Below, in pieces: positions 5,018-28,110 of a stretch of 64,000 nt of DNA. The DNA lies in contig CP084166.1 in NCBI GenBank assembly GCA_021513695.1, forward strand, positions 2,464,001 through 2,528,000, read 5' to 3'. A program made the position numbers and the translations under genes. The DNA comes from Candidatus Heimdallarchaeum aukensis (GTDB lineage Archaea; Asgardarchaeota; Heimdallarchaeia; Heimdallarchaeales; Heimdallarchaeaceae). Within the stretch, counting starts at the first letter, position 1. Each line of letters opens with the position of its first letter. A model generated the notes under the pieces. It was not told the DNA's origin. It was given only the letters and a program-made list of their open reading frames with translations, and made no database searches.

Positions 5018-8000
5018 GTGTGGAGAATGCAAACACATATAATGAGAAAATTTGTTTTTGTTTTTAACTTTATAATTATAATCATTTTTAGCAGTTTAAA
5101 TCCTTCAGTAAATGCTGTGAAAAATGATTATTATACAAAATCTTCTATTGAGGGAGAAACAGTTTCTATTACTTTCTCCGTTACAACACCATATGAAGTG
5201 TCTTCTTTAGAAATACAAATTTTATATCTAATAGACCCCTATTATTATTATAGTTATCAACTGTCAAAAAATAGTCAAGATCCAAACGTTTTCGAAATAA
5301 GTTTAGAGCTGACTGAAGGAAAACTTTTACGATATCGTTATAGTTTAGGTGGAAATCAATGGGAATATCTTTCAGATAAAAATCCTTCATTCAGAACAAT
5401 AGTTATCTCTAAAGGCAATACAAACATCGAAGATAATATTGTGGGTTTTTGTCCTTCTTTTGACCCTTCTACTATTACACGATTAAACGTGACTGGTAGA
5501 GTAGTGGAGCAGGAAACTGATAAACCCATAGAAGATGGTTTTGTTGCTATTGGTGGTGTCATAACTCCTTTAAGAGCTAATGGTTCTTTCTATGCACAGA
5601 ATGTTTTTTCTGGTTATCAACACATACTCGTTTTTTCTTATTCTCATCTGAATTTACAATCAATACAAAATTTGTCTCCAGATACAGACGATGATCCTTT
5701 AGAAATTGATTTAGGGACTTTTAGTCTTGAAAAAACTAGACTTATAAGAGTCACTTTTATTGTAAAAACACCTGAGAATACACAAGACAAACAAGTAAAA
5801 ATAGTAGGCGATCTTCCTCAACTAGGTTATATTTATCCTTATATGGTCTCAACCAGAAATATTCTATTACAACATGTCAAAGATAATTGGTTTATTCAAA
5901 CATTAGAAATTCCAGAACATGTTCCGTTTAACTATTTTTACACTTTAGGTTCATATAACACATATTATGAGGTTGATTCACCCAATCCAAATCCTTTTGT
6001 CCGTTCAATTTATCCAGAAAACAATTCAGTAATAGTTGATGAAGTAGGTGCATGGAAAAATAATGGTTATGTTCATATGAAATTTACAGTAAATGTGCCG
6101 GAAAATACTCCTCAAGAATTTGGAGTCTCGCTCGTAACTAGTAATTCTTTCCTCAAAATGAATAAATTTAGTTCAACAGAATGGTACACAGAACTTGACT
6201 ATCCCGAAGGTTGGGAGTTTAATTATTATTATGCTGTAGGACAAGTAGATCATTCAATTTGGGAGAGTGAATATAATAATTCCAATCCTAGAACTAAGAC
6301 TGCCTCAGAAGGAGAATTTGTGGATACAGTTTCTAAATGGAATTACATTAAAACTCCTCAAACATCTACAGAAAGCAGTGTAAATGTAAGTTTAGTTTTT
6401 ACTGTTCCTTCTTATACTCCAGACGTCTCACTTTATCTAGCAGGAGAACTGTTTGATAATTGGGTAAATCCGCAAGGACAATTATTGCAGAAACTTGACG
6501 CCCACTCTTATCGTACATTCATAGTTTTAAACAAAGATATTGAAACAAGTTTTACTGTAACTAGAGGAACATGGGCTAGTTCTGCAGAAAAAAACTTTAC
6601 TCTTATCCCCAAATTTGAGGGAGAAGAATTTTACTTTTCAGTTGATTCGTGGATAGATCTCTCTTCTCCTTGGAATAGAACTTCATTAATTACTGGAGTT
6701 ATGCCTATAGATTATTGGTCTTCTGATATGCGCACATCTTTAGATCCAGCATTTAAACACTTTGCAGAACTAGGTGGAAAATGGATAGAATATAGCCCTA
6801 TCTGGAATTATGATAGATTGAAACCCTTTCCTTATTTATCCTCTACGACAGGAGTATATACCCCTGATGAAGATCTGGCTTTTATAGTAGAAACAGCAAA
6901 AAAGTATGGTTTGAGAGTAGGTATATCTCTTCAGATAAATACAGAACAAACAGCAGATTCTTCTCAATGGGGAGATTTTACAGCTGAAAAAATTGATGTT
7001 TTGCTTGAAGGATTAAGAACATTCTATTTCCATTATGCAGAACTATCACAGAAATTAGGGATAGAATTCATGACCTTTGCACGTCTAAGTGGAGACTGGA
7101 TAAATGATGCTTATGATACATTTATGATTAACTTAATTCCAGAAATTAGAGAAATATATTCTGGAATGCTCACAACTCACCAAGGTTGGACAGATGATTT
7201 TCAATACTATGGATTACTTGATTTCATAGGTTTTTATTTCTGGGAATCAGTGTTAGCTGGCACTCCTGACCCTACAGTAGACGAATTAACTACTGCATTT
7301 GAAGAAGTTATTGATACACACTATAGGCCCTTTTATGTGAAGTATCAGAAACCAATTATCTTCACTCAAGTGGCTTATGCAGCAATGGAGGAAGCCAACG
7401 GCCAACCCACTATTCCGAGTATTTACGAGGGAACAACTGTTGAATATAGACCTGATATTCAAGCTAGAATCTACGAAGCACTATACAGAGCAATAGCTAA
7501 CAGAACATGGATTGAAGGACTATTTAGTTTTGGCTGGAAATATTGGCCTTCTCATTTTCCAGAATATTCAATCAGCTACACTCCTGCAGAAACAGTTGTT
7601 GCTAAATGGTCAAATATGGTTAACTACGGAAATGGTGTGATTGTTAATAATGAAAACAAAGTAAAAGTAGAACAAGAAGACTTTATTCTTCACCTTGAAG
7701 AATCAGGTTTTTACACTGATATAAGATTAAGAGATTCAGAAGGAAACAACTGGTCTTCTTGGAATATATATCAAACTACAATTGATCTCTCTACTATTCT
7801 CCCGGAGATAAGTACTGAAAAACAGTATGTAATCTGGTTACAAGCAAAAAATTCGACTTTTACAAGTAATCCTACAGCTGTTAAGGTTATAGTAGATTCT
7901 ACAGCTCCTAAAATAAGCACTCAACCAACAAGTTACAATTTTAATCTTAGTAGTTTTAACAGTCTTGGAAAAATAGTGGAAGAAACTAGTTTAAACTTGT

Positions 8001-8884
8001 TAACTTTTGTATTTGATGACACTAGCTCAATTAATGTTGAAGCTCAGGTTACAGGGGCAGAGAATTATACAATAAATACAACAGGAAACGTTTTCACGCT
8101 ACCTATAATATTGTTTACTGAAGGAGATTGGAAAATAAAGTTGAATGTCTATGATGAGTATAATCACTTAACAACTACGACTTTTGAGTTTAGCATTTTT
8201 TCTATAGAATCGACCACTCCTCCGAAATTTACTTCCATTCCCGATGATCTTATTTTTGAAGAAGGTTCGACTGGGCACACTTTAACTTGGATAGTTACAG
8301 ACACCAATCCTTCAACTTATACTATTTATTCAAACGGCACTGAAGTTACCAGCGGTTCTTGGTTATCTGATCAAGCTATTAGTTTCTCTGTAGATGATTT
8401 AACTATAGGTTCTTACAATATTACTATTTTAGTTAAAGATTCGACAGAATTGTCTGCAACTGACACTACATGGGTGGTCGTAAATAAGCCAGAACCACCG
8501 AAATTTACCTCTACTCCTGATGATCTTACTTTTGAAGAGGGTTCGACTGGGCACACTTTAACTTGGATAGTTACAGATACTAATCCTTCAACTTATACTA
8601 TTTATTCAAACGGCACTGAAGTTACCAGCGGTTCTTGGTTATCTGATCAAGTTATTAGTTTTTCTGTAGAAGATTTAGGCGTTGGTTCCTATAATATTAC
8701 TATTTTAGTTACGGATACAACTGGATTATCTACGACTGACACTGTAAATGTGACTGTATTGTCGTCAGACAACAATAGTAGTGGTGATACAACTAAAAAC
8801 CCATTTTCGCTATTTTCACTAATTATATCTTTGCTTGGAATAAGTTTTGTTGCTTTATGGGTGATAAAAAGGAAAAAAAGCTAA
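5018..8884 (+). CDS. large cell-surface protein (1288 aa) with signal peptide, central degenerate glycoside-hydrolase-like TIM-barrel region, C-terminal tandem Ig-like repeats, Ser/Thr-rich linker and C-terminal TM anchor
   Basis: - The N-terminus FVFVFNFIIIIIFSSLNPSVNA is a signal peptide, and the true start may be the Met at about 5042.
- The C-terminus FSLFSLIISLLGISFVALWVIKRKKS is a TM anchor with a basic tail.
- An internal region is similar to the 10497..11666 product (WIEGLFSFGWKYWP versus WIAGLYWWNWE). Confidence 0.8.
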   Translation: MWRMQTHIMRKFVFVFNFIIIIIFSSLNPSVNAVKNDYYTKSSIEGETVSITFSVTTPYEVSSLEIQILYLIDPYYYYSYQLSKNSQDPNVFEISLELTEGKLLRYRYSLGGNQWEYLSDKNPSFRTIVISKGNTNIEDNIVGFCPSFDPSTITRLNVTGRVVEQETDKPIEDGFVAIGGVITPLRANGSFYAQNVFSGYQHILVFSYSHLNLQSIQNLSPDTDDDPLEIDLGTFSLEKTRLIRVTFIVKTPENTQDKQVKIVGDLPQLGYIYPYMVSTRNILLQHVKDNWFIQTLEIPEHVPFNYFYTLGSYNTYYEVDSPNPNPFVRSIYPENNSVIVDEVGAWKNNGYVHMKFTVNVPENTPQEFGVSLVTSNSFLKMNKFSSTEWYTELDYPEGWEFNYYYAVGQVDHSIWESEYNNSNPRTKTASEGEFVDTVSKWNYIKTPQTSTESSVNVSLVFTVPSYTPDVSLYLAGELFDNWVNPQGQLLQKLDAHSYRTFIVLNKDIETSFTVTRGTWASSAEKNFTLIPKFEGEEFYFSVDSWIDLSSPWNRTSLITGVMPIDYWSSDMRTSLDPAFKHFAELGGKWIEYSPIWNYDRLKPFPYLSSTTGVYTPDEDLAFIVETAKKYGLRVGISLQINTEQTADSSQWGDFTAEKIDVLLEGLRTFYFHYAELSQKLGIEFMTFARLSGDWINDAYDTFMINLIPEIREIYSGMLTTHQGWTDDFQYYGLLDFIGFYFWESVLAGTPDPTVDELTTAFEEVIDTHYRPFYVKYQKPIIFTQVAYAAMEEANGQPTIPSIYEGTTVEYRPDIQARIYEALYRAIANRTWIEGLFSFGWKYWPSHFPEYSISYTPAETVVAKWSNMVNYGNGVIVNNENKVKVEQEDFILHLEESGFYTDIRLRDSEGNNWSSWNIYQTTIDLSTILPEISTEKQYVIWLQAKNSTFTSNPTAVKVIVDSTAPKISTQPTSYNFNLSSFNSLGKIVEETSLNLLTFVFDDTSSINVEAQVTGAENYTINTTGNVFTLPIILFTEGDWKIKLNVYDEYNHLTTTTFEFSIFSIESTTPPKFTSIPDDLIFEEGSTGHTLTWIVTDTNPSTYTIYSNGTEVTSGSWLSDQAISFSVDDLTIGSYNITILVKDSTELSATDTTWVVVNKPEPPKFTSTPDDLTFEEGSTGHTLTWIVTDTNPSTYTIYSNGTEVTSGSWLSDQVISFSVEDLGVGSYNITILVTDTTGLSTTDTVNVTVLSSDNNSSGDTTKNPFSLFSLIISLLGISFVALWVIKRKKS
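8216..8773 (+). repeat. two tandem copies of a 279-bp (93 aa) repeat, about 92% identical at nucleotide level, inside the surface-protein gene
   Basis: ccgaaatttac...ggttcgactgggcacactttaacttggatagttacaga...caaacggcactgaagttaccagcggttcttggttatctgatcaag occurs at about 8216-8494 and again at about 8497-8773. Further upstream there are more diverged copies at the protein level. Confidence 0.8.
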
Positions 8885-9101
8885 GCCTATTTCTCTAATT
8901 TTTTTACATCTAAATAGTTATAGGATTTGGTTTCGCTTTTTCTATTTTTTTGTATAACTCTTTTGTAATATCCTCTCTCCACTTAAAAAAAGTAAAACTA
9001 TCATCAGCATTTTTGATTTGATTTTACAATATCTTTTATGTATTCATAAGAAAAAATGTTACAAACAATTAATCTTTTAAATAAGTATTAGTTTAAATTT
9101 T

Positions 9102-10166
9102 TTGATGAAGGAAGGACTACTCAAATACTACTTCGCAAACATACAACAAAACCTTTCAAATGTAAAAGATTATTTTCAACCTTATCTAGTTGAATTTAGA
9201 GATCATGTAGAAAAAACAAAATTTGAAGGAAAAGCAATATATATGCTGGATTTTCTTTTTATTCTATATTTATTTGTTATAGCACTGTTGGGTAGAGTAT
9301 TTGTAGTAAGAATAAATATTATGACCATTTTATTAATATTTGGTATACTAATTATTTCAGTTATAATGTACAAAGTAGAGCCTATCAAATTTAAGAAACC
9401 ATTTTCTTTATTGCTAGACTTTAGTCCTTTTATTTTTATTTGGCTGAGTTATGATTCTCTGGCAATTGTACAAGAAAAACTCATTTATCCAAGAGTGCAT
9501 ACAACTGAATTATATAACCTCGATATGAAGCTTTTTTCTTGGATGCTTAGAGGATTATCACCTAATGAATGGTTTGCAACTACTTTCTCCTCTTTAACTG
9601 TGGATGTGTTTTTTGGCTTTACTTATATTCTCCATACAGTAATCCCGTTTATTATTATTGTTTTAATGCTCCTTGGAAAAGATAGAAAAAATATACGGTT
9701 TACAGTTTTGTCATTTTCAATTGTTTCACTGATCTCGTTTATCACCTATGTTGTTTTTCCTGCAGCAGCTCCGTGGTATATAGCACAATATGGGTTTAAT
9801 TCTCCCTCTCCAAACATTTCCTACAGTGAAAGTGTGACTGCAGGTTTAAGTAGAATAGATGAGTTATTAGGAATAAGTTTGTTTCAAACAGTTTATAGCT
9901 TTGAAAGTAACTCTTTTGCAAGTTTACCAAGCGTGCATGCAGCTTATGCTATGTCAGCAGCTCTTTGCGCATATAATAAGTGGAAGAAAAAATCCTTGAT
10001 ATTTACTGCTCCTTATGTTTTTGCTATTCTCTTTGGAGCAATTTATTTCTATCACCATTTTGTGATTGATTTAATAGTTGGAGTAGCATATTCTCTTATT
10101 GCTCATTTCCTAACCCAAAAAATTGTTAAAAAAGCTAGTAATAATGAAAAATTATTCCTAAAATAA
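9102..10166 (+). CDS. PAP2-superfamily (phosphatidic acid phosphatase type 2 / IPC-synthase-like) integral membrane protein
   Basis: The protein is polytopic. PSVHAAYAMSAA matches the PSGH-like motif, and YHHFVIDLIVG matches the SRx5Hx3D-like H...D motif. Confidence 0.5.
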   Translation: MMKEGLLKYYFANIQQNLSNVKDYFQPYLVEFRDHVEKTKFEGKAIYMLDFLFILYLFVIALLGRVFVVRINIMTILLIFGILIISVIMYKVEPIKFKKPFSLLLDFSPFIFIWLSYDSLAIVQEKLIYPRVHTTELYNLDMKLFSWMLRGLSPNEWFATTFSSLTVDVFFGFTYILHTVIPFIIIVLMLLGKDRKNIRFTVLSFSIVSLISFITYVVFPAAAPWYIAQYGFNSPSPNISYSESVTAGLSRIDELLGISLFQTVYSFESNSFASLPSVHAAYAMSAALCAYNKWKKKSLIFTAPYVFAILFGAIYFYHHFVIDLIVGVAYSLIAHFLTQKIVKKASNNEKLFLK

Positions 10167-17516: not shown

Positions 17517-18653
17517 CTATCTATTTACAAAGGATTTTCCGCAATTAGAGCAAAATCTAGCATCTATATCATTTTGAAATCCACAATTAGGACAATATTT
17601 GAATAATGGACGGTTAGGTATAACATTTCTATAAGCATTTCTGTTAGCATTATTTCTGTTAGCATTATTTCTGTTAGCATTTAGAGGATTAACTTGGTCG
17701 ATTTTTTTATCCCTTACTTCTAAAACCATTGAGTTAGGATTCCCAGAAGTAGGATTTTTCTTGAAAGCAATCCGAGTCTCATTATCAGCATAGATAACTT
17801 CTTCTGAGATAGCTGGATTTGGGTTATCAGTTCGTAAATTATTAGGTTGTACAAAGCTGCTTTGCATAGTAGAAGTTCCAAAAGTAAGACCTATCTTCTT
17901 TGCATCACTACTTAAACCATAAAAACCACCTACAAAGAAAATATAGCCTATAAGAGCAGAAATACCAGCAATTAAAAACCAAATCAAGAATGAAGCATCG
18001 AAATAACCAGTTAAGAAACCTTCAAGAATAGCACTTATCATTTTAATTGATCCAAAAACGCTAGAAAAAACAGAAATAATAATAATGTATCGAGAGTATA
18101 AGAGCCAATTAGTATACTGATCATAGAAAAGATTCATTTGTTTTAATTGATCAAAAGTGGAAGAAAGAGCTTTAAAACCTAAAGTGAGAAAAATAAAAGG
18201 AAGAAGAATTAATATTAATAAGATAAATGTAAAAGAAGGTAAAAAGAAAATCAAAGGAAACAAAAAAGGAGAAATAAAGGCTATAATCATCTCAGAAAAC
18301 ATACTCACTTTAATGTATTTGCTCACATCTTTAGCAGAATTAGTGTGAAAATTGTAGTAAAAAGAAAGCTCAGTAGAAAGGTCATTAAAACCACCTGCAA
18401 GTTTGAAAAAGAAAATATAACGAAAGATAACAAGAATAATAGGAAAAATAGAAACTAAAAAAAGAGAAACAAGACGATTATCAAGTTTTAAAAATTTAAC
18501 AAAAAGAGCAAAGCCCGTGTATAAAAATAAATAAGAAATGAATCCAGATAAAGCAATAATAATATAAATTATTCCTAAAGCTTTAGAAGAGCTAGATATT
18601 TTGTTTTTTATTATAGATAGTCTGCTTTGAGCTGTGTTTAGATGCATTTTCAA
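17517..18653 (-). CDS. polytopic membrane protein (paralog of 13750..14502) with C-terminal Asn/Arg-rich repeat and a C4 zinc ribbon
   Basis: The C-terminus has NANRNNANRNNANRNAYRN followed by YCPNCGFQNDIDARFCSNCGKSF. The membrane core is homologous to the 13750..14502 product. Confidence 0.6.
   Translation of the reverse strand: MKMHLNTAQSRLSIIKNKISSSSKALGIIYIIIALSGFISYLFLYTGFALFVKFLKLDNRLVSLFLVSIFPIILVIFRYIFFFKLAGGFNDLSTELSFYYNFHTNSAKDVSKYIKVSMFSEMIIAFISPFLFPLIFFLPSFTFILLILILLPFIFLTLGFKALSSTFDQLKQMNLFYDQYTNWLLYSRYIIIISVFSSVFGSIKMISAILEGFLTGYFDASFLIWFLIAGISALIGYIFFVGGFYGLSSDAKKIGLTFGTSTMQSSFVQPNNLRTDNPNPAISEEVIYADNETRIAFKKNPTSGNPNSMVLEVRDKKIDQVNPLNANRNNANRNNANRNAYRNVIPNRPLFKYCPNCGFQNDIDARFCSNCGKSFVNR
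17639..17686 (-). repeat. 3 copies of a 15-bp tandem repeat (tctgttagcattatt) encoding the NANRN repeats
   Basis: Directly visible at 17639-17686. Confidence 0.6.
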
Positions 18654-19086
18654 ACCCTCAAGGAAATTTCAAAAACAAAATAAAAATTTTTTTTTAAAGA
18701 AAAAACAAGTTTAAATTTAAAATCTAAATAGAATTAAAAGAACAAAAAACCAAGAGTTAGAATTAAAAAAATTGAGCTGTAAAGTATCTGTTTAACATTA
18801 AACCTAGAATTAAAAAAGGTAACATAGAATATGATTGTATTTTGAGACCTTATTACAACATTAAGATAAAAGTGGTTTAATTTTTTTCATTTTTTACTTT
18901 TTTTTTTATTTTTTTCATTCTTAAGATTTTGATTTTTTGTTGTAACTGTATTCACTTTTTATTTGTAAACATTTATATGTCTTAGATAATAATAAATAGT
19001 TACAATGTTCATTTATAACATAAATCTTTTTGTTTATTTGAACATGGGTCTAGTAATAGAATAGCATGATTTAGTTTGGTGATTAT

Positions 19087-19676
19087 ATGAAAAAAATTCA
19101 GTTTTTTTTGTTTTGTTGATAGTTTTGTCTGCTTTTACAGCACGACAAGTTTTTTCATCTACTGATGAAAATGAAACAGATGTTCAAGAATATTTCTTTG
19201 ATTTAACCTTAATTTTTGTTGAAGATACTACTTTTGAGGATTATGCTCCATATATACAAAAATATCTCAAAGAGATAGGTATTAATGTATCAATTCTTCC
19301 TCAGAATTATTGGGATTTTTATTTTTCTGTTGTTTATGATCGCGATTTTGAGATTGCTTTAGCTGGTTATTCTAACTCTCCTGATGCATATCTCGATGAT
19401 TTGTTAATTGAAGATTCTAACAGTAACTATTGTTCATTTAATAGTTCAATTCCTTATTATAATGAAACAAATGATTATATTGAAAAAATTAAGACTACAG
19501 TCGATCCTGATACTAAGCTAACTTATTATTACAAATTACAAGAATTAGTAATGGACAAGGTTTTACCAGTTATTCCTCTCTTTACTTCAAATGAGTATAC
19601 TATTGCTTGGTCAAACTTGAAAGGTTACGATATGTCTTGGGGATTAGTAAACAGTTTACATTACATGGTTTTGTAA
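19087..19676 (+). CDS. secreted protein homologous to only the C-terminal lobe of SBP_bac_5 (peptide/nickel-type) solute-binding proteins; the 5' end is frameshifted in a T8 homopolymer
   Basis: - The ATG at 19087 gives MKKIQFFLFC and then a stop.
- One extra T in the T-run at 19102-19109 would give MKKIQFFFVLLIVLSAFTARQVFSS, a canonical signal peptide, joined to the body IGINVS...FEIALAGYSNSPDAYLDDLL...YYKLQELVMDKVLPVIPLF.
- The ORF track instead starts at TTG 19113. Confidence 0.5.
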
Positions 19677-19706
19677 AGTCAAAACTTAAAATTTTTATTT
19701 TATATA

Positions 19707-20714
19707 AAGCATGTCCAAAAATTAATTTTTATTAATGTGGGGGTTTATGTCGGAATTATGAGTTTCTTTCAGATCATAGACCCCCACAAACTAAGAGAAT
19801 TCATAATTATGAATGAACCTTTCCTTAAGAAATTGGTGGATGAGAAAACGAGAGAAAGCAAGAAAGGAAGAAAAAAATAGCAGAAAGATGGGTAATATTA
19901 GCAATAACAATCATTGCAAGAATAGAAGGGATAGCCTGGAGGAAGTTAGAAGAAAAGTTGCCTCTATGCGATTTTTTGATAGAAGAGGGGTGGATGAGGA
20001 AGATTCCTTCTAAATCTACTTTTCATGCAGTGTGGGAAGCAACAGAAATTAAAATTTTAGAGCAGTGGATAATAGATTTAGGGGGAGAAATAGTGAGAAA
20101 AAAAGGGTTGAAAGCTATGGCAGTGGACAGTTCAGGGTTTAAAATTCGTTAAGCTTCTGTTTGGCGTTTTCTCAAGTGGTCAAGAGGGACACTAAAGAAA
20201 TCCTCCCAACTAAACTTTTCTGGAAGATACACCTTATAGTTGGTTTACCCTCCAGAGCTGTAGTCTCTCTAGCTCATTCAGCTAGTAACACTCACGATAG
20301 TAAAGTCTTCGGTTTACTATGGCAGAAACTTCCTTCTGCACTCTTAAGACCGTTCTTGAGATTCTATGATGACTGCGCCTACTGGACAGAAAATATCGTC
20401 GGTCTTCTTAGCCAACATTCTTTTTTCCCTGTTATTCCCCCAAAAAGTAATGCTCGTTATCCCTCTCCTCCTCCCCTCGGACCAATAGTTCAAGCTCATC
20501 GTCTCTACCCTGGTCTCTATCGTCGTAATCATCACCCCGAGTATCGTAGTAGTATTGAACATGTCTTTGGTCTTCTCAAACTCTCTCTTCCGCCCATCCT
20601 TGATCGTTTACCCTCTACTATTCTTTCTACGCTTTACAGTTCTCTTCTCTGTTACAACTACCTTTTACTCCTTCGGACCGTTTAGTAGGTGAAAAAGAAT
20701 TTTTGGACATGCTT
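19707..20714 (+). mobile_element. IS element of about 1008 bp (IS5/IS4 superfamily, DDE_Tnp_1 transposase), copy 1, with a decayed transposase
   Basis: Terminal inverted repeats AAGCATGTCCAAAAATT and AATTTTTGGACATGCTT. It is flanked by TATATA on both sides. It is about 95% identical to the copy at 56260..57268, but in opposite orientation. Confidence 0.8.
19813..20685 (+). pseudogene. transposase of the IS5/IS4 superfamily broken into at least three frames (19813..20013, 19958..20152, 20161..20685)
   Basis: The fragments match orfA and orfB of the copy at 56.3 kb (AVDSSGFKIR, FYDDCAYWTENIVG, SSIEHVFGLLK). There are additional indels relative to that copy. Confidence 0.7.
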
Positions 20715-20783
20715 TATATAAAACGAAATTATCGACACTTTTGTATGCAATATTTTATAATTTGTTATTTTTTGTTTTAGTTA

Positions 20784-22421
20784 ATGAGTGAAAAAGTAAC
20801 AAAAAAGAAATTACGTGAATTAACACTTTGGGGAAAGGAAGAACCTGAAAAGCTTAGTGAAGGATTAGTAAAAGAGCTTAGTTTACTTATTCCTTCTTGG
20901 AAAATTAAGGAATTAAAAGAAGAAGAATTAGAACAAGAAGTGAGTATACCTCCTAACAGTTTGTCAGAAAAACAAATAGCAGAGTTAAAAGAAATTGTAG
21001 GAGAGAATAATCTAAATTTGGATGCTATTACTAGAATCATGTATTCTCATGGAGGAGCAGGAGAAGATTTAATTAGAGTTAGAACAGCTAATTTTTCTTT
21101 GTTAACTGAAGCAGTTGTTCATCCAGAAACAGAAGAACAAATTATCGCTGTGATGAAATTCTGTGAAAAAAACAATCTTTCTCTGATAGTAGTGGGAGGA
21201 AGAACAGGAGTTACACGGGCTACAAATCTATCAAAAAAAGGAATAACAATAGATTTACGTCCACATTTTACAAAAATAATTCACTTTGATAAAGAACAGT
21301 TATTAGTTAGAGTTCAAACAGGAATCTTGGGGCCAGAGTTGGAGGATTATTTACAGAGAAGAGGATGTACTCTAGGTCATTTTCCCCAATCTTTTGAACA
21401 ATCTTCTGTTGGAGGATGGATCGCTTCAAGAAGTGCAGGACAAAATTCTTCTTTAGTAGGAAAAATAGAAGATATGGTTATTAGCCTTCGAGTTTGCACT
21501 CCTCAGGGTATAGTAGAATCACACCTTTCTCCTGCTAGAGCTACTGGTCCCCAGTGGTTCAGATATTTTATTGGCAGTGAAGGAACATTAGGAATTATTA
21601 CTGAAGCTGTGCTTAAAATCAGGACCGATGAAACAAGAAACAGAAAATTTGCTAGTTTTATGTTTCCTTCTTTTCAAGATGGAATAAACGCAATGAGAGA
21701 AATATATCAAGGAGAATTTATTCCAGCTATCGGTAGACTTTCATGTGGAAATGAAACACAAGCCTATTTGCTCTTAAATAGGGAAGGAAAGGTGAGATTA
21801 AAAGATAAACTAATAGAATTTATATTGAAAACCCTCAAATTTTACCCAATGCGACGAGCAGTATTTCTTACTGTCTTTGAAGGAAGTAAAGAATATGTAA
21901 AAAAAGCCAAAAAGAGAGTAAAAAAGATAGCTTTAAGACATAAAGGATTGCCTGCTGGAGGGAGTTATTCTAAAAAATGGTTTGAAGATCGATTTGAACA
22001 TCCACATTTAAGAGACAGCTTGCTAGATAAAGGACTTATAGTAGATACTCTTGAGACAGCTAGTACTTGGGATAATGTTCCTATATTAGAGAAAAAAGTG
22101 AAAGAAGCAGTAAAAGATATTTGCCCACTAACTATTGCTCATCTTTCTCATAGTTATCCATCTGGTTCAGCAATATACTTTACTTTCTTCATACCTTTAC
22201 AGAAAAACAAAGGATTAGAACAAATTAGAGAGTTGCAGAAGAGAGTAATTACTACTTTTCAAAAAAATGGAGGAGTAGTTTCTCACCACCATGGTATAGG
22301 TAAAGCATTCAAAGAGTGGGGAAAGAAAGAGTGGGGAGAAACAGCTTTAAAAATGGCTGAAGGAGTAAAAAAAGAACTAGATCCTGATAATATTCTTAAT
22401 CCTGATAATTTTCCTTTTTAA
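20784..22421 (+). CDS. FAD-linked oxidase of the PCMH/FAD_binding_4 type with a C-terminal HHH loop; alkyl-dihydroxyacetonephosphate synthase (AGPS)-like
   Basis: FAD_binding_4-like core LSLIVVGGRTGVTRA...GGWIASRSAG...GSEGTLGIITEAVLKI. The C-terminus has VVSHHHGIGKAFKEW, the His-His-His loop characteristic of alkyl-DHAP synthases. There is also an N-terminal extension of about 100 aa. Confidence 0.65.
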   Translation: MSEKVTKKKLRELTLWGKEEPEKLSEGLVKELSLLIPSWKIKELKEEELEQEVSIPPNSLSEKQIAELKEIVGENNLNLDAITRIMYSHGGAGEDLIRVRTANFSLLTEAVVHPETEEQIIAVMKFCEKNNLSLIVVGGRTGVTRATNLSKKGITIDLRPHFTKIIHFDKEQLLVRVQTGILGPELEDYLQRRGCTLGHFPQSFEQSSVGGWIASRSAGQNSSLVGKIEDMVISLRVCTPQGIVESHLSPARATGPQWFRYFIGSEGTLGIITEAVLKIRTDETRNRKFASFMFPSFQDGINAMREIYQGEFIPAIGRLSCGNETQAYLLLNREGKVRLKDKLIEFILKTLKFYPMRRAVFLTVFEGSKEYVKKAKKRVKKIALRHKGLPAGGSYSKKWFEDRFEHPHLRDSLLDKGLIVDTLETASTWDNVPILEKKVKEAVKDICPLTIAHLSHSYPSGSAIYFTFFIPLQKNKGLEQIRELQKRVITTFQKNGGVVSHHHGIGKAFKEWGKKEWGETALKMAEGVKKELDPDNILNPDNFPF

Positions 22422-22559
22422 TACTTTTTTCTCTACTTAACACATCTAATTTTAATATTAAGAAAATAGGGTTCGTTTATAATATAAATTAATAGATTAA
22501 AAATAGCGCTCGCTTGAAAAATTAGCTGTTATGAATTAGAAAAAACTAAATAACCTTTT

Positions 22560-24212
22560 ATGCAATGCGAAATTATGCATAGAAATAGACAAATACAAAA
22601 ACTTCAGACAGAAATTTTTGATATTATCGTCATCGGTGGAGGGATAAATGGGTTAGGAGTAGCTCGTGATGCAGCTTTAAGAGGGTTAAAGGTTGCTTTA
22701 ATTGAAAAAGGAGATTTTGGTTCAGGAACAAGCTCAGCTAGTGCTAAGTTAATCCATGGAGGATTGAGATATTTAGAAACTTATCAGTTTAAAATAGTAT
22801 TAGAAAGTGTGAAAGAACGTAATATCCAATTAAAGGTCGCTCCTCATATAGTAAAACCTATTCATTTTGTTATTCCCACTTTTAAGGGTGATAGAGTAAA
22901 GAAATGGTTGATATTGTTAGGTTTATATGTTTATGACCTTTTTTCTATGTTTAAGAGACCTAGACATAAAAATCTAAGCAAAAAAAGGATTTTGGAACTA
23001 GTTCCATGGCTAAAAAAGGAAAAACTGAACGGTGGAGGGTTATATTGCGACGCTATAACCGATGATGCTAGATTGTGTTTGATTAATGCCCAAGCTGCTT
23101 ATGAAAATGGTGCAGTTATATTAAATTATATTCAAGCAAAGGACATAGTAAGAGAAAAGGATAATTGGTTGGTTTGTGCAAAAGATAAGATAGAAAATAA
23201 AGAAATAGAAATAAGAGGACGTACTGTTGTTTCTGTTGCTGGAGTATGGACAAAAAATCTTCTCTATAAAGAGGAAAAAGTACCAAGTATTTTATTTTCA
23301 AAAGGTTCACATTTGGTTTTTCCACAAAAATTCAAAGACTTTGGAATAACTTACAGTTATCAATCTAGAAAAGGAGGAGGATATATTATTCCATGGAAAA
23401 ATGTGACCCTTATAGGTACAACAGATAATATTTGTGACAATATTGAGGAAGCTAATCTAACACCAAAAGAAGATATTGAATTCCTTCATAAGGAAGTAAA
23501 CAGACTATGTGGTAAGAGTTCGTTCTTCGCTAAGGATCAAATACAAGCAACTTTTGCTGGAATAAGACCTCTCTTTATTGATAAAAAGGAGAAAGAAAAA
23601 GAGATAACTGATATATCTCGTGAATACAAAATTACAGAATTAGAAAAAGGGTTAATCGTTGTTATAGGTGGAAAACTCACTACATATAGATTACTCGCTA
23701 AAAAAGTAGTAGATAAAATAACAAAGAAACATTTGAAAATTAGAAGAAAATGTTTAACTCATAAAGCAAAGTTACCAGGGTCAGACGTGGAAAACTATGA
23801 AAAAGAAGAAAAAAGAATTCTTAAAGAATTAGAGTCAATGAATATAGAACCAATTTGCGCTTCACACTTAATAAACACGTACGGTACAAGAGTAGATAAA
23901 ATAATAGAAATAGCAAAAGAAAAACCATCTTTAAAGGATAGAATCTCACAAAATAAACCAATCATTAAGGCAGAAATAGAATATATGCTTGCTAATGAGT
24001 TTGTTGAAACACTAGAAGATATAATGATTAGACGTACATGGTTAAACCTTGAACAAGATCACGGTTTTGATTGTCTTGATTATATTTCCAATTGTTTAAG
24101 AAAAGAATACGAGAAAAAGCATTCAAAAGAAAAAGCTACAGAGATGATTAATCAGCAACTTATAAGCTATAAGGAATATATATCAAAAATGGAGAAAAGA
24201 ATAAATTATTGA
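22560..24212 (+). CDS. FAD-dependent glycerol-3-phosphate dehydrogenase (GlpA/GlpD family)
   Basis: N-terminal FDIIVIGGGINGLGVARDAALRGLKVALIEKGDFGSGTSSASAKLIHGGLRYLE is the DAO-family G3P dehydrogenase signature. The C-terminal region is consistent with DAO_C. Confidence 0.7.
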   Translation: MQCEIMHRNRQIQKLQTEIFDIIVIGGGINGLGVARDAALRGLKVALIEKGDFGSGTSSASAKLIHGGLRYLETYQFKIVLESVKERNIQLKVAPHIVKPIHFVIPTFKGDRVKKWLILLGLYVYDLFSMFKRPRHKNLSKKRILELVPWLKKEKLNGGGLYCDAITDDARLCLINAQAAYENGAVILNYIQAKDIVREKDNWLVCAKDKIENKEIEIRGRTVVSVAGVWTKNLLYKEEKVPSILFSKGSHLVFPQKFKDFGITYSYQSRKGGGYIIPWKNVTLIGTTDNICDNIEEANLTPKEDIEFLHKEVNRLCGKSSFFAKDQIQATFAGIRPLFIDKKEKEKEITDISREYKITELEKGLIVVIGGKLTTYRLLAKKVVDKITKKHLKIRRKCLTHKAKLPGSDVENYEKEEKRILKELESMNIEPICASHLINTYGTRVDKIIEIAKEKPSLKDRISQNKPIIKAEIEYMLANEFVETLEDIMIRRTWLNLEQDHGFDCLDYISNCLRKEYEKKHSKEKATEMINQQLISYKEYISKMEKRINY

Positions 24213-24355
24213 AAAGATAAACTTAATTTTGCACAAAGTAACTGTAATCCAATCTTGTTGTCAGTACGACAGAAGTAAATCAGTTTTATATAGTAAATTG
24301 AAATGTTTACTGATGTTTACTATATCTTTATTAAGTCATTAGCATAAATTTCTCT

Positions 24356-24901
24356 TTGATGAAAAAAGCAGTATATTTAACTAAGTTTGTATTTATAGTT
24401 TTAATTCTATCTTATTCAGCAATAATCACCTTTTCAGAAAATACAAATGAAAATGATTATTTCTTTTCTATAAACTTACTATCTCCTAATCCTTCTTGCT
24501 GTCCTAATGAATATGCCTACCAAATGGAAGAAGAATTACCAAAAATTGGTATTAATATTAGTCACCATGAATCAACCGGTTGGGGTAATATTATGCCCAG
24601 AACATGGGGTTATCCCGTTGGTGAAGAAGGTAAGTTTGATTATATACCCACCTATGAAGAAGGAGGATACGATATCCTCTTTGTAGGTTGGTGTTGGAAA
24701 CTAGATTGGGATCCAACAGGACTGTTTGATTCACCAAGTATAGTGCCGAACGGAGATAATGTATACCAATATAACAATCCTGAATTTGATACAAAGCTTG
24801 TTGAGTATACGACTGAACTAAATGATGAAGAACGTATTGAAAAAGCAAAAGAATTACAAGCTATTATTTATGAAGACCTGCCAGCTATAACCATGACTTA
24901 A
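24356..24901 (+). CDS. signal peptide plus C-terminal-lobe segment of an SBP_bac_5 solute-binding protein, truncated at an inversion junction
   Basis: - Signal peptide MMKKAVYLTKFVFIVLILSYSAIITFSE.
- IGINIS...DILFVGWCWKLDWDPTGLF...YNNPEFDTKLVE...KAKELQAIIYEDLPAI corresponds to the C-lobe and C-terminus of the family.
- It ends at LPAITMT*, about 30 aa short of the paralog at 19087..19676. Confidence 0.5.
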   Translation: MMKKAVYLTKFVFIVLILSYSAIITFSENTNENDYFFSINLLSPNPSCCPNEYAYQMEEELPKIGINISHHESTGWGNIMPRTWGYPVGEEGKFDYIPTYEEGGYDILFVGWCWKLDWDPTGLFDSPSIVPNGDNVYQYNNPEFDTKLVEYTTELNDEERIEKAKELQAIIYEDLPAITMT

Positions 24902-25417
24902 TGCACTTAAGGCGAAGCCATAAGGTTTTTTGAATTTAAATTCTACTGTATCATTATCTATCGCCTTAATTGAATCGTTATTTTCGAACAAGCTTGTTAG
25001 TTCTTTGTAAAATGGTGTGTTTAGCGCTTTTGTCATAAACAGTTCATACGTATAATCTACATCATAAGCTGTTACTTTATCCCCATTAGAGAAATAGGCG
25101 TTGGGATTAATATCTACTCTAATTACTTTCTTATCTTCGCTAATGGTGTAATTTTTAGCTATAACTGGTTCCATCAGATGAGTTTCCTGAGAACGTTCAA
25201 AAAGTCCATAATAGACACAATTCATCCATAGTTTATCATAATATGATTCTTGTATAAAAATGCTGTATTCTGTTAACTCTGCGGGGATAGTCCAACTAAT
25301 ATTATCTCCACCTATTTTTTCCCAATTTTCTGAACGATGAGCACTGTTAATTAATAAAGTAGGATCAATACCTTTGACACTCTTATTGCACAGATAAATT
25401 TCTTCGAAGTAAAGCAT
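24854..25417 (-). pseudogene. inverted segment encoding the N-terminal lobe of an SBP_bac_5 protein (no signal peptide)
   Basis: Minus-strand translation ...YYGLFERSQETHLMEPVIAKNYTISEDKKVIRVDINPNAYFSNGDKVTAYDVDYTYELF...TVEFKFKKPYGFA matches the SBP_bac_5 N-lobe, including the DG.x.TA.DV.ys.e motif. It lies between two plus-strand SBP_bac_5 pieces. Confidence 0.5.
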
Positions 25418-25516
25418 GGTATAATAAACAAAAAACTAGTAAGTCAATATATAGAAGAAAATGGATACAAACTTACAGTCCTAGATCAAGCTCTGGTAAC
25501 AAGCACAGGACCATAC

Positions 25517-26128
25517 ATGCTAAATGTTTCTGAGTTTAATACAAGTAAAAGTATAGTAACACTCAGACCAAATCCATATTGGTCTATTACAGAAAAAAAA
25601 CCAGTAAACAAACTAATATTCCAGTACATAAGTGGTAAAGATACAGCAATTAGTGCTTTAGCAAATGGTACAATAGATATAGTTGATTCAAGTTATTGCA
25701 CAAAAGAAACAGATTTTGAAAATGTAGAAGTGAATATCCTAATAGCTAAAAGTATGAATACAGAAGAAATGGCTATAAATATGAAACACCCAATAATAGG
25801 AACAGGAGAACTTACACCTCTAGGAACGGCAGAAGCAGCAAAAAAAATACGCCAAGCGATAAGTCATGCAGTACCAAGAGAAACACTAGTAGAAAAAATA
25901 TTTTATGGAACAGCTATCCCAGGAGTGACTCCAATGCCAGAAGGATGTATAGGTTTTGATTCGTCATTAGAACCCTTTACTTATGACATATATCTAGCTA
26001 TTCAACTAATTGAGGAAGCAGGATTTACAAGAAATATTACAACAGACACAACAGGAAATGCTACATTAATAGTAGTAACATTGATTTCTATTTGTTATGC
26101 TGTAATCTTAAAAAGGAAAAAGAAATAA
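25517..26128 (+). CDS. middle segment of an SBP_bac_5 protein with C-terminal TM anchor
   Basis: - TLRPNPYW...LIFQYISGKDTAISALANGTIDIV...AISHAVPRETLVEKIFYGTAIPG matches the central part of the family.
- The frame is actually open from 25358, and SBP homology starts near 25430 with KKLVSQYIEENGYKL.
- It ends in the TM anchor GNATLIVVTLISICYAVILKRKKK.
- It has no signal peptide and no C-lobe. Confidence 0.5.
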   Translation: MLNVSEFNTSKSIVTLRPNPYWSITEKKPVNKLIFQYISGKDTAISALANGTIDIVDSSYCTKETDFENVEVNILIAKSMNTEEMAINMKHPIIGTGELTPLGTAEAAKKIRQAISHAVPRETLVEKIFYGTAIPGVTPMPEGCIGFDSSLEPFTYDIYLAIQLIEEAGFTRNITTDTTGNATLIVVTLISICYAVILKRKKK

Positions 26129-26262: not shown

Positions 26263-26988
26263 CTAATCATCATCTTGTAATTTTTTTTCATCTTTTTTTC
26301 TTACCCTATCTGTGAATTTAGCCAATCTGTTGTATATAAAATTGCCAAAAAGTTTCTCGATTATTGCTGGAGGAAGACCTTCTTTTTTCCTATTTAGTAT
26401 AAGTTGAGAATAGATATCATCAAAAGAATTAACAAAACCTTTATCCTCAACTATCCAGTGTTGTAAGACAACAAGGTCGTTTTTCCCATCCCAGTCAATG
26501 GTGGGAATTTGCTCTTTTGTTATTTTACCTTGTTTAAGCAAAGATTCATACAAAGCTTTGTCTAAAAGTGATTCACAAGAAATCCACAGGTTGTCCAAAA
26601 AACATTCACACCAAAAGTGGCTAGCTTGATTAGAAATTTTATTGTAAACAAAATTAGGAACAAGTGGTTTTAGAAATTCCTTTAAAGCTGATGATACTCT
26701 GAGCCTAGAAGGAATACCAACAGCTCGAAGAAAAGCCATATGAAGAGAAGTCTTATTTGCACATTCACCATAACCTTTTTTCAAAGTCCTAGAAGCTCGA
26801 GCATCAACATTTGAAATGCCAAACTTAATATTATCTCTTACCCAATAAAAAATCCTTAAAGCTTTATCAAGTTGAGTAGTTGCTCCCTCTACAATCTCAA
26901 TAACTTTATCTTGGATAACAGGATTGTTAAAATCACAACTTCGTGTGGGTTGGAGAAAAAGTTCTAGATCATTGTTAATTTTATGCAT
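26263..26988 (-). CDS. transglutaminase-like cysteine protease superfamily protein
   Basis: GYGECANKTSLHMAFLRAVGIPSRL matches the transglutaminase core G.C..fA.....lRa.GIPaR with the catalytic Cys. A downstream His (ASHFWCE) and Asp are present. Confidence 0.65.
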   Translation of the reverse strand: MHKINNDLELFLQPTRSCDFNNPVIQDKVIEIVEGATTQLDKALRIFYWVRDNIKFGISNVDARASRTLKKGYGECANKTSLHMAFLRAVGIPSRLRVSSALKEFLKPLVPNFVYNKISNQASHFWCECFLDNLWISCESLLDKALYESLLKQGKITKEQIPTIDWDGKNDLVVLQHWIVEDKGFVNSFDDIYSQLILNRKKEGLPPAIIEKLFGNFIYNRLAKFTDRVRKKDEKKLQDDD

Positions 26989-27247
26989 ATCTAGTCATCT
27001 TTTCTGTAAAAAAGTATGCGTTCCTATTCTTATATCTTTTGAAAAATTTAAAGATGTTTGGAAGGTTTAAAGAGACGCAAGCCTAAAAAAATTCTTCTGT
27101 GCTAATTTAAATTAAAATAAGAAGTCTTCTATAAATTTTTTTTGCCAATGGGTACTTTTCCGATTATCTCTCTTCGATAGCTGAAGTTTAAGTATTAAGT
27201 TTAAATTGATAAAATTGAAAAGAAAAAATGGAAAATACTATAAACAT

Positions 27248-27376
27248 TCATCTTTTATTTTTAGCTGCTGCACGTTGAGCTCTGGATTTAAAAGCTTGGT
27301 TTTTTCCTGTCTTATCTGCATGGCTTTGTATTCGTCTCGCAGCTTTACTGGTCATAGGTTTTGTTTTCTTTGTCAT
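27248..27376 (-). CDS. small basic protein (43 aa), hand-called
   Basis: Hand translation gives MTKKTKPMTSKAARRIQSHADKTGKNQAFKSRAQRAAAKNKR, and it overlaps a probably spurious plus-strand ORF at 27206..27406. There is no database support, so it could equally be noise. Confidence 0.25.
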   Translation of the reverse strand: MTKKTKPMTSKAARRIQSHADKTGKNQAFKSRAQRAAAKNKR

Positions 27377-27462
27377 GTTATCACCTTTTTAATAATGTCT
27401 TTGTAAAAAAAGTAAAAAAATATTCTCTCTTAAAGTAAAAATTGCTTTTTTATTATAAAAAT

Positions 27463-28110
27463 TTAATTTGCAATTGTAAAGTATTTAGCAGCGAATCTGC
27501 CTGCATTTGTTAATTTAATAATATTATTTCTTCCTTCTTTTTTATTTTCAATGAGATTCTCTTTTTCAAGTTTATTTATATAATAACTTACAAGTTGAGG
27601 TCTTATATTCAGAACATCACTGATCTCTGAATTAGCTGAACAAATTTTTCCTCCTCTTTCAAGTATGAGTGTAAGTATTTTTTTGGCATTATCTTTTATG
27701 TCATCTAATTGGACTTTTGGAATGGGAAGCTTAATTATTCTATCACTTAATGGATCATTATTTTTTGGTTCTTTAATATAATAAATCTCTGAACCAGAAA
27801 AAAATCCTGCTATTACACCAGCTGATGACATGATTTTTGTACCTCCTGTAATGTTTATGTGGATTCTATTACCAATGTTCTTCTTGATAATACTAAGAAT
27901 TTTAACTACAACATCTTCTAAATCAAATTTATCAACTTCAACTAATGTACAATTAATAAATAGTTTTTCAGTTAGTGCTCTAATTGAATTAGCCTCTGTT
28001 TTTGATCCTTCATTGTAAAGAAGAAATATATCATCAATTTGATATGCATTTATTCCTTCAATTATTGGTTTTGGTGTCAATCCAACTGTCATAATATGTA
28101 CATTTCGCAT
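27463..28110 (-). CDS. Csa3-like transcriptional regulator: CARF (CRISPR-associated Rossmann fold) sensor domain plus C-terminal winged HTH
   Basis: N-terminal MTVGLTPKPIIEGI...HINITGGTKIMSSAGVIAG carries the CARF D/N-x-T-G-G-T-K signature. The C-terminal wHTH is SEISDVLNIRPQLVSYYINKLEKENLIE. It is divergent from the viperin gene. Confidence 0.7.
   Translation of the reverse strand: MRNVHIMTVGLTPKPIIEGINAYQIDDIFLLYNEGSKTEANSIRALTEKLFINCTLVEVDKFDLEDVVVKILSIIKKNIGNRIHINITGGTKIMSSAGVIAGFFSGSEIYYIKEPKNNDPLSDRIIKLPIPKVQLDDIKDNAKKILTLILERGGKICSANSEISDVLNIRPQLVSYYINKLEKENLIENKKEGRNNIIKLTNAGRFAAKYFTIAN

Follow-up and report, generated by a model that had tools for sequence, protein, structure and literature searches.

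The locus at positions 24356-26128 of a 64,000-nt stretch of Candidatus (Ca.) Heimdallarchaeum aukensis (CP084166.1; this whole stretch is hereafter the window, and all coordinates are positions within it) very probably holds the aukensis copy of a family of membrane-anchored, circularly permuted solute-binding proteins (SBPs) of cluster C, recently broken by a clean reciprocal inversion of 525 bp. With less assurance, we lean towards the view that the Heimdallarchaeia keep a large and essentially monophyletic family of such permuted proteins, the first to be reported in cluster C, which derives from canonical anchored SBPs. An earlier sequence-only reading had described the locus as an SBP gene in three pieces, two on the plus strand and one on the minus strand, and these open reading frames (ORFs) are present as it described them. 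The parts of the gene are as follows.

24356-24901, plus strand: ORF of piece 1, 181 amino acids (aa)
24359..24892, plus strand: 5' part, ancestral codons 1-178, with the signal peptide and the canonical C-terminal third (tblastn, family hidden Markov model (HMM))
~24359-24436, plus strand: Sec-type signal peptide, directly preceding the canonical C-terminal third of cluster-C SBPs
24854-25417, minus strand: ORF of piece 2, 187 aa
24854..24892, minus strand: out-of-frame tail of piece 2, GYSWQVFINNSL and stop, antisense to the end of piece 1
24890..24895, strandless: left arm of a 6-bp inverted repeat, ACCATG, with the crossover inside
24893..25417, minus strand: inverted segment of 525 bp, ancestral codons 179-353, readable on the minus strand only
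25415..25420, strandless: right arm of the 6-bp inverted repeat, CATGGT, with the breakpoint inside
25418..26128, plus strand: 3' part, ancestral codons 354-589 and stop (Pfam, tblastn, family HMM)
25517-26128, plus strand: ORF of piece 3, 203 aa, in a frame that is open from 25358
26039..26128, plus strand: Thr-rich linker, C-terminal transmembrane helix and basic tail (TTDTTGNATLIVVTLISICYAVILKRKKK); the terminal helix spans 566-588 in the model of orthologue P0001

The identity of the pieces was established by comparison with the Pfam model SBP_bac_5 (PF00496; 368 positions, gathering cut-off 32.4 bits) and with an HMM of the permuted family. The minus-strand piece corresponds to SBP_bac_5 positions 3-92 (E 5e-19, 69 bits), which bears out its assignment to the N-terminal lobe, and the plus-strand stretch 25421-26128 to positions 102-287 (E 8e-27, 94.7 bits); pieces 2 and 3 are therefore consecutive parts of one domain, encoded on opposite strands. 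Piece 1 alone had no Pfam match at E ≤ 1. The permuted-family HMM recognised all three pieces, at positions 1-175 (piece 1, E 1e-81), 174-350 (piece 2, E 1e-67) and 347-592 (piece 3, E 2e-90). That piece 1 is a signal peptide followed by the canonical C-terminal part, as had been proposed, follows from its alignment to residues 375-476 of NikZ (4oet_A) and to residues ~380-580 of canonical-order Heimdallarchaeota SBPs; its reading frame now continues to a TAA at 24899-24901. Translated, the inverted segment first completes the canonical C-terminus (MLYFEE...SENWEK) and then, after a short linker, gives the canonical N-terminal lobe (ISWTIPAELTEYS...FALSALSH). The 3' part, whose first ATG lies at 25517, encodes the canonical middle region (GIINKKLV...GPYML...LIEEAGF) and then the anchor, so that piece 3 is, as described, the middle domain with a C-terminal transmembrane helix. 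The 48-bp overlap reported at the first junction (24854-24901) is likewise real, and the minus-strand tail within it, GYSWQVFINNSL, is non-SBP antisense read-through, a by-product of the inversion. The deposited GenBank proteins for the three pieces are UJG40382.1 (hypothetical), UJG40383.1 and UJG42154.1, the last two annotated as ABC (ATP-binding cassette) transporter substrate-binding proteins.

Reverse-complementing exactly 24893-25417 (525 bp, 175 codons) yields one 590-codon ORF without stops from 24356 to 26128, in which pieces 1 and 3 share a frame and whose product is 589 aa long. The inversion of the N-lobe piece, put earlier at ~530 bp, is thereby confirmed, and the rejoined junctions read ...LPAIT/MLYFEE... 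and ...ALSALSH/GIINKK... (the slash marks the join). In line with this, tblastn with the 90%-identical orthologue P0001 placed its residues 1-179 at 24359-24895 on the plus strand, residues 178-354 at 25420-24890 on the minus strand, and residues 351-584 at 25409-26110 on the plus strand. The junctions are as sharp as the sequence-only reading held them to be; where it had estimated ~24895 and ~25428, the re-inverted ORF and the alignment to the intact homologue fix the breakpoints at 24893 and 25417. Short inverted repeats, suggested for 24890-24910 and 25420-25435, do occur there, but they amount to only the 6-bp pair ACCATG/CATGGT. The complementarity of these hexamers comprises six perfect base pairs and ends on both sides; no longer or imperfect inverted repeats were found at the junctions, the longest regional pairs being chance matches elsewhere, 70-88% complementary, and the 1.9-kb stretch around the gene contains 205 chance inverted-repeat pairs grown from 6-base seeds. 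Un-inverted orthologues hold both hexamers at the same codons, ATA ACC ATG CTT (in L001, L006 and L008) and AGT CAT GGT ATA (in all of them), which means that the repeat is older than the inversion. The window junctions match a reciprocal exchange inside the hexamers exactly, with no base gained or lost.

Over its entire length the rejoined protein shares 90% identity with the 589-aa homologue P0001, whose cluster includes UJG43104.1 of Ca. H. endolithica. As had been suggested as a check, relatives do carry the un-inverted, intact form: syntenic orthologues were found at loci L001, L006 (Ca. H. endolithica, UJG43104.1) and L007, with a glycerol-3-phosphate dehydrogenase gene or its remnant on one side and a transglutaminase-like gene on the other, and a further intact orthologue at L008, a 2.2-kb contig with little flanking sequence. 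In blastn comparisons the flanks are co-linear at about 90-96% identity and the block 24886-25423 alone is reversed, lying opposite in orientation to its flanks relative to L001, L005, L006, L007 and L008 at ~92% nucleotide identity. The same aukensis genome also encodes an intact paralogue, P0002, which is 61% identical to the rejoined protein.

When the re-inverted gene was compared codon by codon with four orthologues, the ratio of non-synonymous to synonymous substitution rates (dN/dS) came to 0.22-0.24 over the whole gene and to 0.10-0.15 within the flipped segment. The intact orthologues compared among themselves gave 0.26-0.33 overall and 0.09-0.36 in the flipped segment, where the upper value stems from only five changes between two near-identical sequences. 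By parsimony, 15 synonymous and 8 non-synonymous changes fall on the aukensis branch, which does not set it apart from two intact lineages with synonymous to non-synonymous counts of 15:8 and 13:14. The re-inverted gene has no secondary stops or frameshifts; thus, although its frame is disrupted in comparison with the intact orthologues, the aukensis copy carries no sign of relaxed selection and no secondary lesions. Purifying selection on the un-inverted frame acted through essentially all of the divergence, and the inversion must therefore be very recent. The best reading of the aukensis copy is accordingly a very young pseudogene, produced by a clean 525-bp inversion at a microhomology.

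In the course of events that we propose, the ancestral gene encoded a signal peptide, the canonical C-terminal third, a linker of ~5 residues, the canonical N-terminal two-thirds, a Thr-rich linker and a transmembrane anchor, in that order. One reciprocal exchange of 525 bp between ACCATG and CATGGT, both already part of the coding sequence, broke it. This exchange was probably spontaneous and microhomology-mediated, whether by illegitimate recombination or by replication template switching, and would not be reversible by design. The original promoter would now lead only to a 180-aa secreted fragment in which three extra residues follow the signal peptide and C-part; the N-lobe would be readable in antisense only, without a signal peptide; and the 3' piece with the anchor would be left promoterless, without a signal peptide and without an obvious start before 25517. 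With its products split in this way no complete binding protein could be made, which would render the locus a pseudogene. Intact members of the family presumably bind solutes at the cell surface.

The order of the parts in the rejoined protein is not the canonical N-to-C order, and the circular permutation implied by the sequence-only reading was upheld by alignments to known structures and to canonical-order relatives, all of which show swapped blocks. In phmmer searches against the PDB, query residues 242-560 aligned to residues 29-320 of NikZ (4oet_A; E 2e-17) and query residues 102-198 to residues 375-476 of the same chain, and YliB (1uqw_A) gave the same swapped order. BLASTP against canonical-order Heimdallarchaeota SBPs aligned residues 214-556 to ~25-385 (30-34% identity, E down to 1e-57) and residues 34-213 to ~380-580 (35-38% identity, E 1e-21 to 1e-41). 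No NCBIfam model came at or near its cut-off. Collinearity with the full-length profile of the permuted family was obtained only after re-inversion, and the single intact reading frame that is missing from the window copy is present in the orthologues.

An exhaustive profile search of 1.84 billion representative sequences returned 650 proteins at E ≤ 1e-30, and domain order was classified for 144 of the best 150 representatives (50%-identity clusters). Eighty of these were permuted and 37 canonical; in the canonical group, profile positions 209-565 occupy residues ~30-390 and are followed by profile positions ~30-202 at ~395-580. Hundreds of intact proteins of ~590 aa from Heimdallarchaeia are collinear with the re-inverted gene, so that the earlier suggestion of a permuted family maintained in this lineage holds; the named canonical-order members also belong to the Heimdallarchaeota. 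Proteins of both orders have an N-terminal signal peptide, a Ser/Thr-rich linker, a C-terminal transmembrane helix and a basic tail. Since these ends are shared, the permutation exchanged two internal blocks without touching the targeting and anchoring ends. In a neighbour-joining tree of the N-terminal plus middle block, a rough tree without support values, one split sets all 78 permuted sequences, along with 1 of the 33 canonical ones, apart from the rest, a pattern that is consistent with a single permutation event.

Some very large Asgard proteins carry two or three tandem SBP modules, namely P0255 (1217 aa), P0266 (1524 aa; MFX1514882.1, Promethearchaeota) and P0234 (1695 aa), with family HMM segments repeating as 497-562, 32-483, 492-555 and 25-483; it is plausible that such tandem-module proteins are candidate intermediates in a route to permutation by internal tandem duplication. 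In P0275 (624 aa, JGI) family HMM positions 385-563 lie at residues 23-215 and are followed by positions 31-346 at residues 215-536, an apparently different block order that may mark another point of permutation, though truncation of a tandem protein or mis-assembly could also produce it. The permuted family also has a near-invariant motif, INMKHPxxGTGELTPxGTxxAAKxIRKAISHAVPR, at about residues 474-507 of P0001. The GTGELTPxGT segment within it, which is gapped in the PDB alignments, looks like a family-specific insertion relative to canonical SBPs.

Structure prediction for the orthologue P0001 with AlphaFold2, from 114 family sequences, gave a confident model (pLDDT 93, pTM 0.87) in which the N-terminally placed C-part was modelled as confidently as the rest. 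Foldseek searches of the PDB with this model returned cluster-C SBPs (NikZ, OppA, DppA, MppA and others) as all of the top 50 matches, each at probability 1.0. The matches covered about 370-390 aligned columns of the 589 residues at a TM score of about 0.4-0.45; such low scores and partial coverage are as expected when a sequential aligner meets a permuted protein.

Among species-representative genomes, 203 stretches encode relatives of the family. The best 80 of these all come from Asgard metagenome-assembled genomes, of which nearly every one is labelled Heimdallarchaeota, and individual genomes have several paralogues. At 20 of the 79 loci (counts given here out of 79 refer to L012-L090), family genes stand in tandem as pairs or triplets. 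No Opp/Dpp-type permeases (BPD_transp_1) were found in the Pfam-annotated contexts of the window locus, L006, L009, L010 and L091. An ORF with ABC ATPase motifs occurs at 15 of the 79 loci, in most cases ~345 aa long and placed ~700 bp upstream in the same orientation, together with a polytopic membrane ORF (for example at L020, L023, L026, L028, L030, L031 and L032). At L010 the corresponding cassette (7139-9767) encodes three proteins: a polytopic membrane protein of 326 aa that has no Pfam hit, an ABC_tran ATPase of 348 aa with a terminal zinc ribbon, and one of 153 aa. This upstream cassette, which is not of the Opp/Dpp type, may be the cognate transporter of an SBP subfamily; the window gene has no such cassette among its neighbours.

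The inverted arrangement might have been introduced by assembly or amplification, for instance as a chimeric molecule from multiple displacement amplification (MDA), with the real gene intact. MDA creates inverted chimeras at short microhomologies, and the 6-bp junction microhomology is in the range typical of them. MDA was indeed used for aukensis, but for the Nanopore libraries only; the contigs were assembled with SPAdes from Illumina PE150 paired-end reads, and Nanopore data served for scaffolding alone (PMC8813620). An artefact would, moreover, need two matching chimeric junctions that dominate the coverage, and the 6-bp repeat is far below the k-mer of any assembler, so that orientation cannot have been mis-resolved. 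Logan assemblies, which were built separately from the published genome by another pipeline from two runs of one study, have the same two junctions and the same inverted arrangement (SRR15988954, 100% identity over 9.3 kb; SRR15988958, 99.91%), so that all three assemblies show the inverted orientation. The exact un-inverted 589-aa aukensis protein is absent from a collection of 15 billion proteins. Exact-pattern scans of a metagenome contig collection for the conserved sequences beside the junctions gave no match in either orientation, not even to the known JGI contig L005, so these samples are probably missing from that collection. Given that the two separate assemblies agree, that the contigs are Illumina-only and that the repeat cannot confuse an assembler, we regard the inversion as a true feature of the sampled DNA and think an artefact very unlikely.

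The inversion could also be programmed and reversible, with a recombinase flipping the 525-bp segment as an on/off or recoding switch that happened to be captured in its 'off' state. Intragenic inversion switches are known, both of the Hin/Fim type and as intragenic invertons reported in gut bacteria, and surface proteins are a class often subject to phase variation. The locus resembles invertons in that a segment inside a coding sequence, lying between inverted repeats, has been turned round and the product altered; the inversion is clean, spans a multiple of three bases, restores a full ORF on flipping back and lies in a neighbourhood with mobile and defence-like genes. The lack of mutational decay would fit a switch too, although recency accounts for both the cleanness and the lack of decay equally well. 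It differs from invertons on several counts. Their extended inverted repeats are typically well above 10 bp, whereas here six perfect base pairs stand without extended flanking symmetry among 205 chance pairs in 1.9 kb. No site-specific recombinase family appeared among the recorded Pfam hits and scans of selected ORFs from ~14 kb upstream to 10 kb downstream, the scanned flanks of the junctions holding only a DDE transposase fragment of an unrelated insertion sequence (IS). The three assemblies and the protein collection yielded one orientation alone, five related contigs or genomes have the same hexamers un-inverted, and the family genes of the 79 further loci contain neither an inverted segment nor an opposite-strand fragment. 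A switch thus seems improbable to us, if marginally less so than an artefact. Least probable of all, in our judgement, is that the three ORFs form a functional split binding protein or are separately useful fragments kept by selection. All three are open and annotated as proteins in GenBank, and a stand-alone gene for a signal peptide and C-part at 19113-19676 (described below) has kept its length in close relatives. However, with no signal peptide on pieces 2 and 3, reassembly with piece 1 outside the cell is not possible; piece 2 ends in antisense read-through; the arrangement is found in this genome only, the orthologues being single genes; and the substitutions record selection for the un-inverted frame and leave no time after the break.

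The sequence-only reading had left the choice between a decayed, rearranged pseudogene and a permuted or split family maintained in the lineage. A rearranged pseudogene here and a permuted order maintained elsewhere both fit the results, but 'decayed' has to be dropped for a copy with no extra stops or frameshifts and a dN/dS like that of a functional gene, and 'split' finds no support, as none of the 79 other family loci is split by inversion and two of the three pieces lack a signal peptide for reassembly outside the cell.

Some points do count against a recently and irreversibly broken binding-protein gene. The lack of decay would be equally at home in a reversible switch, and several neighbouring ORFs without Pfam hits may include an unrecognised recombinase. 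The evidence on orientation is at the level of assemblies, so a minority un-inverted subpopulation may exist, and the two Logan runs, coming from the same study, may not be independent biological samples if they shared DNA or enrichment. Lastly, most of the family loci sampled have no neighbouring Opp-type permease genes, and the solute-binding function remains putative.

Upstream of the broken gene lies a second, short relative:

19113-19676, plus strand: stand-alone gene for a signal peptide and C-part, 187 aa (family HMM, Pfam)

The family HMM recognises it at positions 6-193 (E 1.5e-7), and the Pfam model at positions 291-358, though with a score under the cut-off of 32.4 (E 2.9e-7; 30.4 bits). 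It had been reported, at 19087-19676, as a signal peptide with the C-lobe only, and this is correct for the gene as placed here. The protein ends at the canonical C-terminus and is related to the family, though highly diverged; its length is conserved in close relatives (178-187 aa), and a homologue search found only its own cluster at ≥90% identity. It may be a relic or truncated family member, or a functional stand-alone module. We considered whether an IS had truncated this gene and rejected the idea: at L011, which is 100% identical over window positions 19000-19708 and has no IS, the same 187-aa gene directly precedes a FAD-oxidase gene.

The IS element itself occupies 19709-20712. Its terminal inverted repeats are 15 bp long (GCATGTCCAAAAATT), and a target-site duplication of 10 bp (TTTATATAAA) flanks it at 19699-19708 and 20713-20722. 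Inside lies a DDE_Tnp_1 fragment of 174 aa (20161-20685), preceded by reading frames that appear to be frameshifted. The empty site in L011 has flanks that are 99-100% identical, and a ~90% identical copy of the element occurs in Ca. H. endolithica (L006 12821-13859). An IS-mediated origin of the 525-bp inversion was also rejected, as this nearby element has terminal repeats and a target duplication of its own and the junctions are free of IS sequence. In Ca. H. endolithica (L006 8930-9708) and L001 (2-965), the FAD-linked oxidase and most of the glycerol-3-phosphate dehydrogenase are missing relative to window 20531-24321; a DAO_C remnant is left, and an IS-end remnant (window 20531-20728) abuts the deletion, which suggests that the deletion is IS-associated.

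Downstream of the broken gene, in window 26263-28110 and beyond it (L002 1-8170), follow a transglutaminase-like protein, a Csa3/CARF-wHTH regulator (27463-28110), a radical-SAM protein, a 928-aa AAA_11/AAA_12 helicase and a PLDc_2 protein; this neighbourhood looks like a defence or mobile island. On the other side, window 17517-18653 (minus strand) encodes a 378-aa polytopic membrane protein with a C-terminal zinc ribbon, preceded by a short NANRNNANRNNANRN repeat, and has syntenic homologues in L006 and L011.

Compared with canonical cluster-C SBPs (OppA, DppA, NikA/NikZ, MppA), the permuted family has the same fold, evident sequence homology and a signal peptide, but the last third of the protein (~170 residues) comes first and the canonical N-terminus is internal; in addition, no Opp/Dpp-type permease genes adjoin the permuted-family loci sampled. 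Its closest non-permuted relatives are canonical-order anchored SBPs of Heimdallarchaeota (P0213/MDH5403730.1 and P0237/MCY3415103.1), at 30-39% identity over both blocks. These belong to the same phylum, have the same anchor ends and, in the one locus examined, are likewise orphan; they differ in having the N-terminal plus middle part first and the C-part after it. Natural permutation has a precedent in TpMglB-2 (Tp0684) of Treponema pallidum, a circularly permuted ABC-type binding protein that has kept its fold and ligand binding and for which, with its relatives, the class 'Type Ic / Cluster Bc' was proposed; its authors suggest that tethering may favour the permuted topology (PMC4990184). 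TpMglB-2 is, like the Heimdallarchaeia family, both naturally permuted and membrane-tethered, but it is a bacterial cluster B protein of the MglB type with an N-terminal lipid anchor, whereas the family described here is archaeal, of cluster C and held by a C-terminal transmembrane helix. There is no detectable sequence relation between the two, the matches of the permuted family all being to cluster C. Searches of the literature on circular permutation in SBPs or Asgard archaea found only TpMglB-2 and engineered sensors, and no description of a permuted cluster-C family in Heimdallarchaeia. The family thus appears to be undescribed, while the inversion itself is a mutation of an ordinary kind.

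For annotation, UJG40382.1, UJG40383.1 and UJG42154.1 are fragments of one gene and a pseudogene label is due. As a natural instance of inversion at a 6-bp microhomology, caught before decay, the locus is unusually clean. Standard domain models cover two-thirds of the permuted proteins, and the permutation is therefore invisible in routine annotation. The parent and permuted forms both survive in the same phylum, along with possible tandem intermediates, which makes the family well suited to studying how a permutation originates and whether anchoring geometry, as proposed for TpMglB-2, may drive it. The family is expanded and for the most part not linked to classical permease genes, and it belongs to the archaea most closely related to eukaryotes; its role may lie in uptake, sensing or adhesion.

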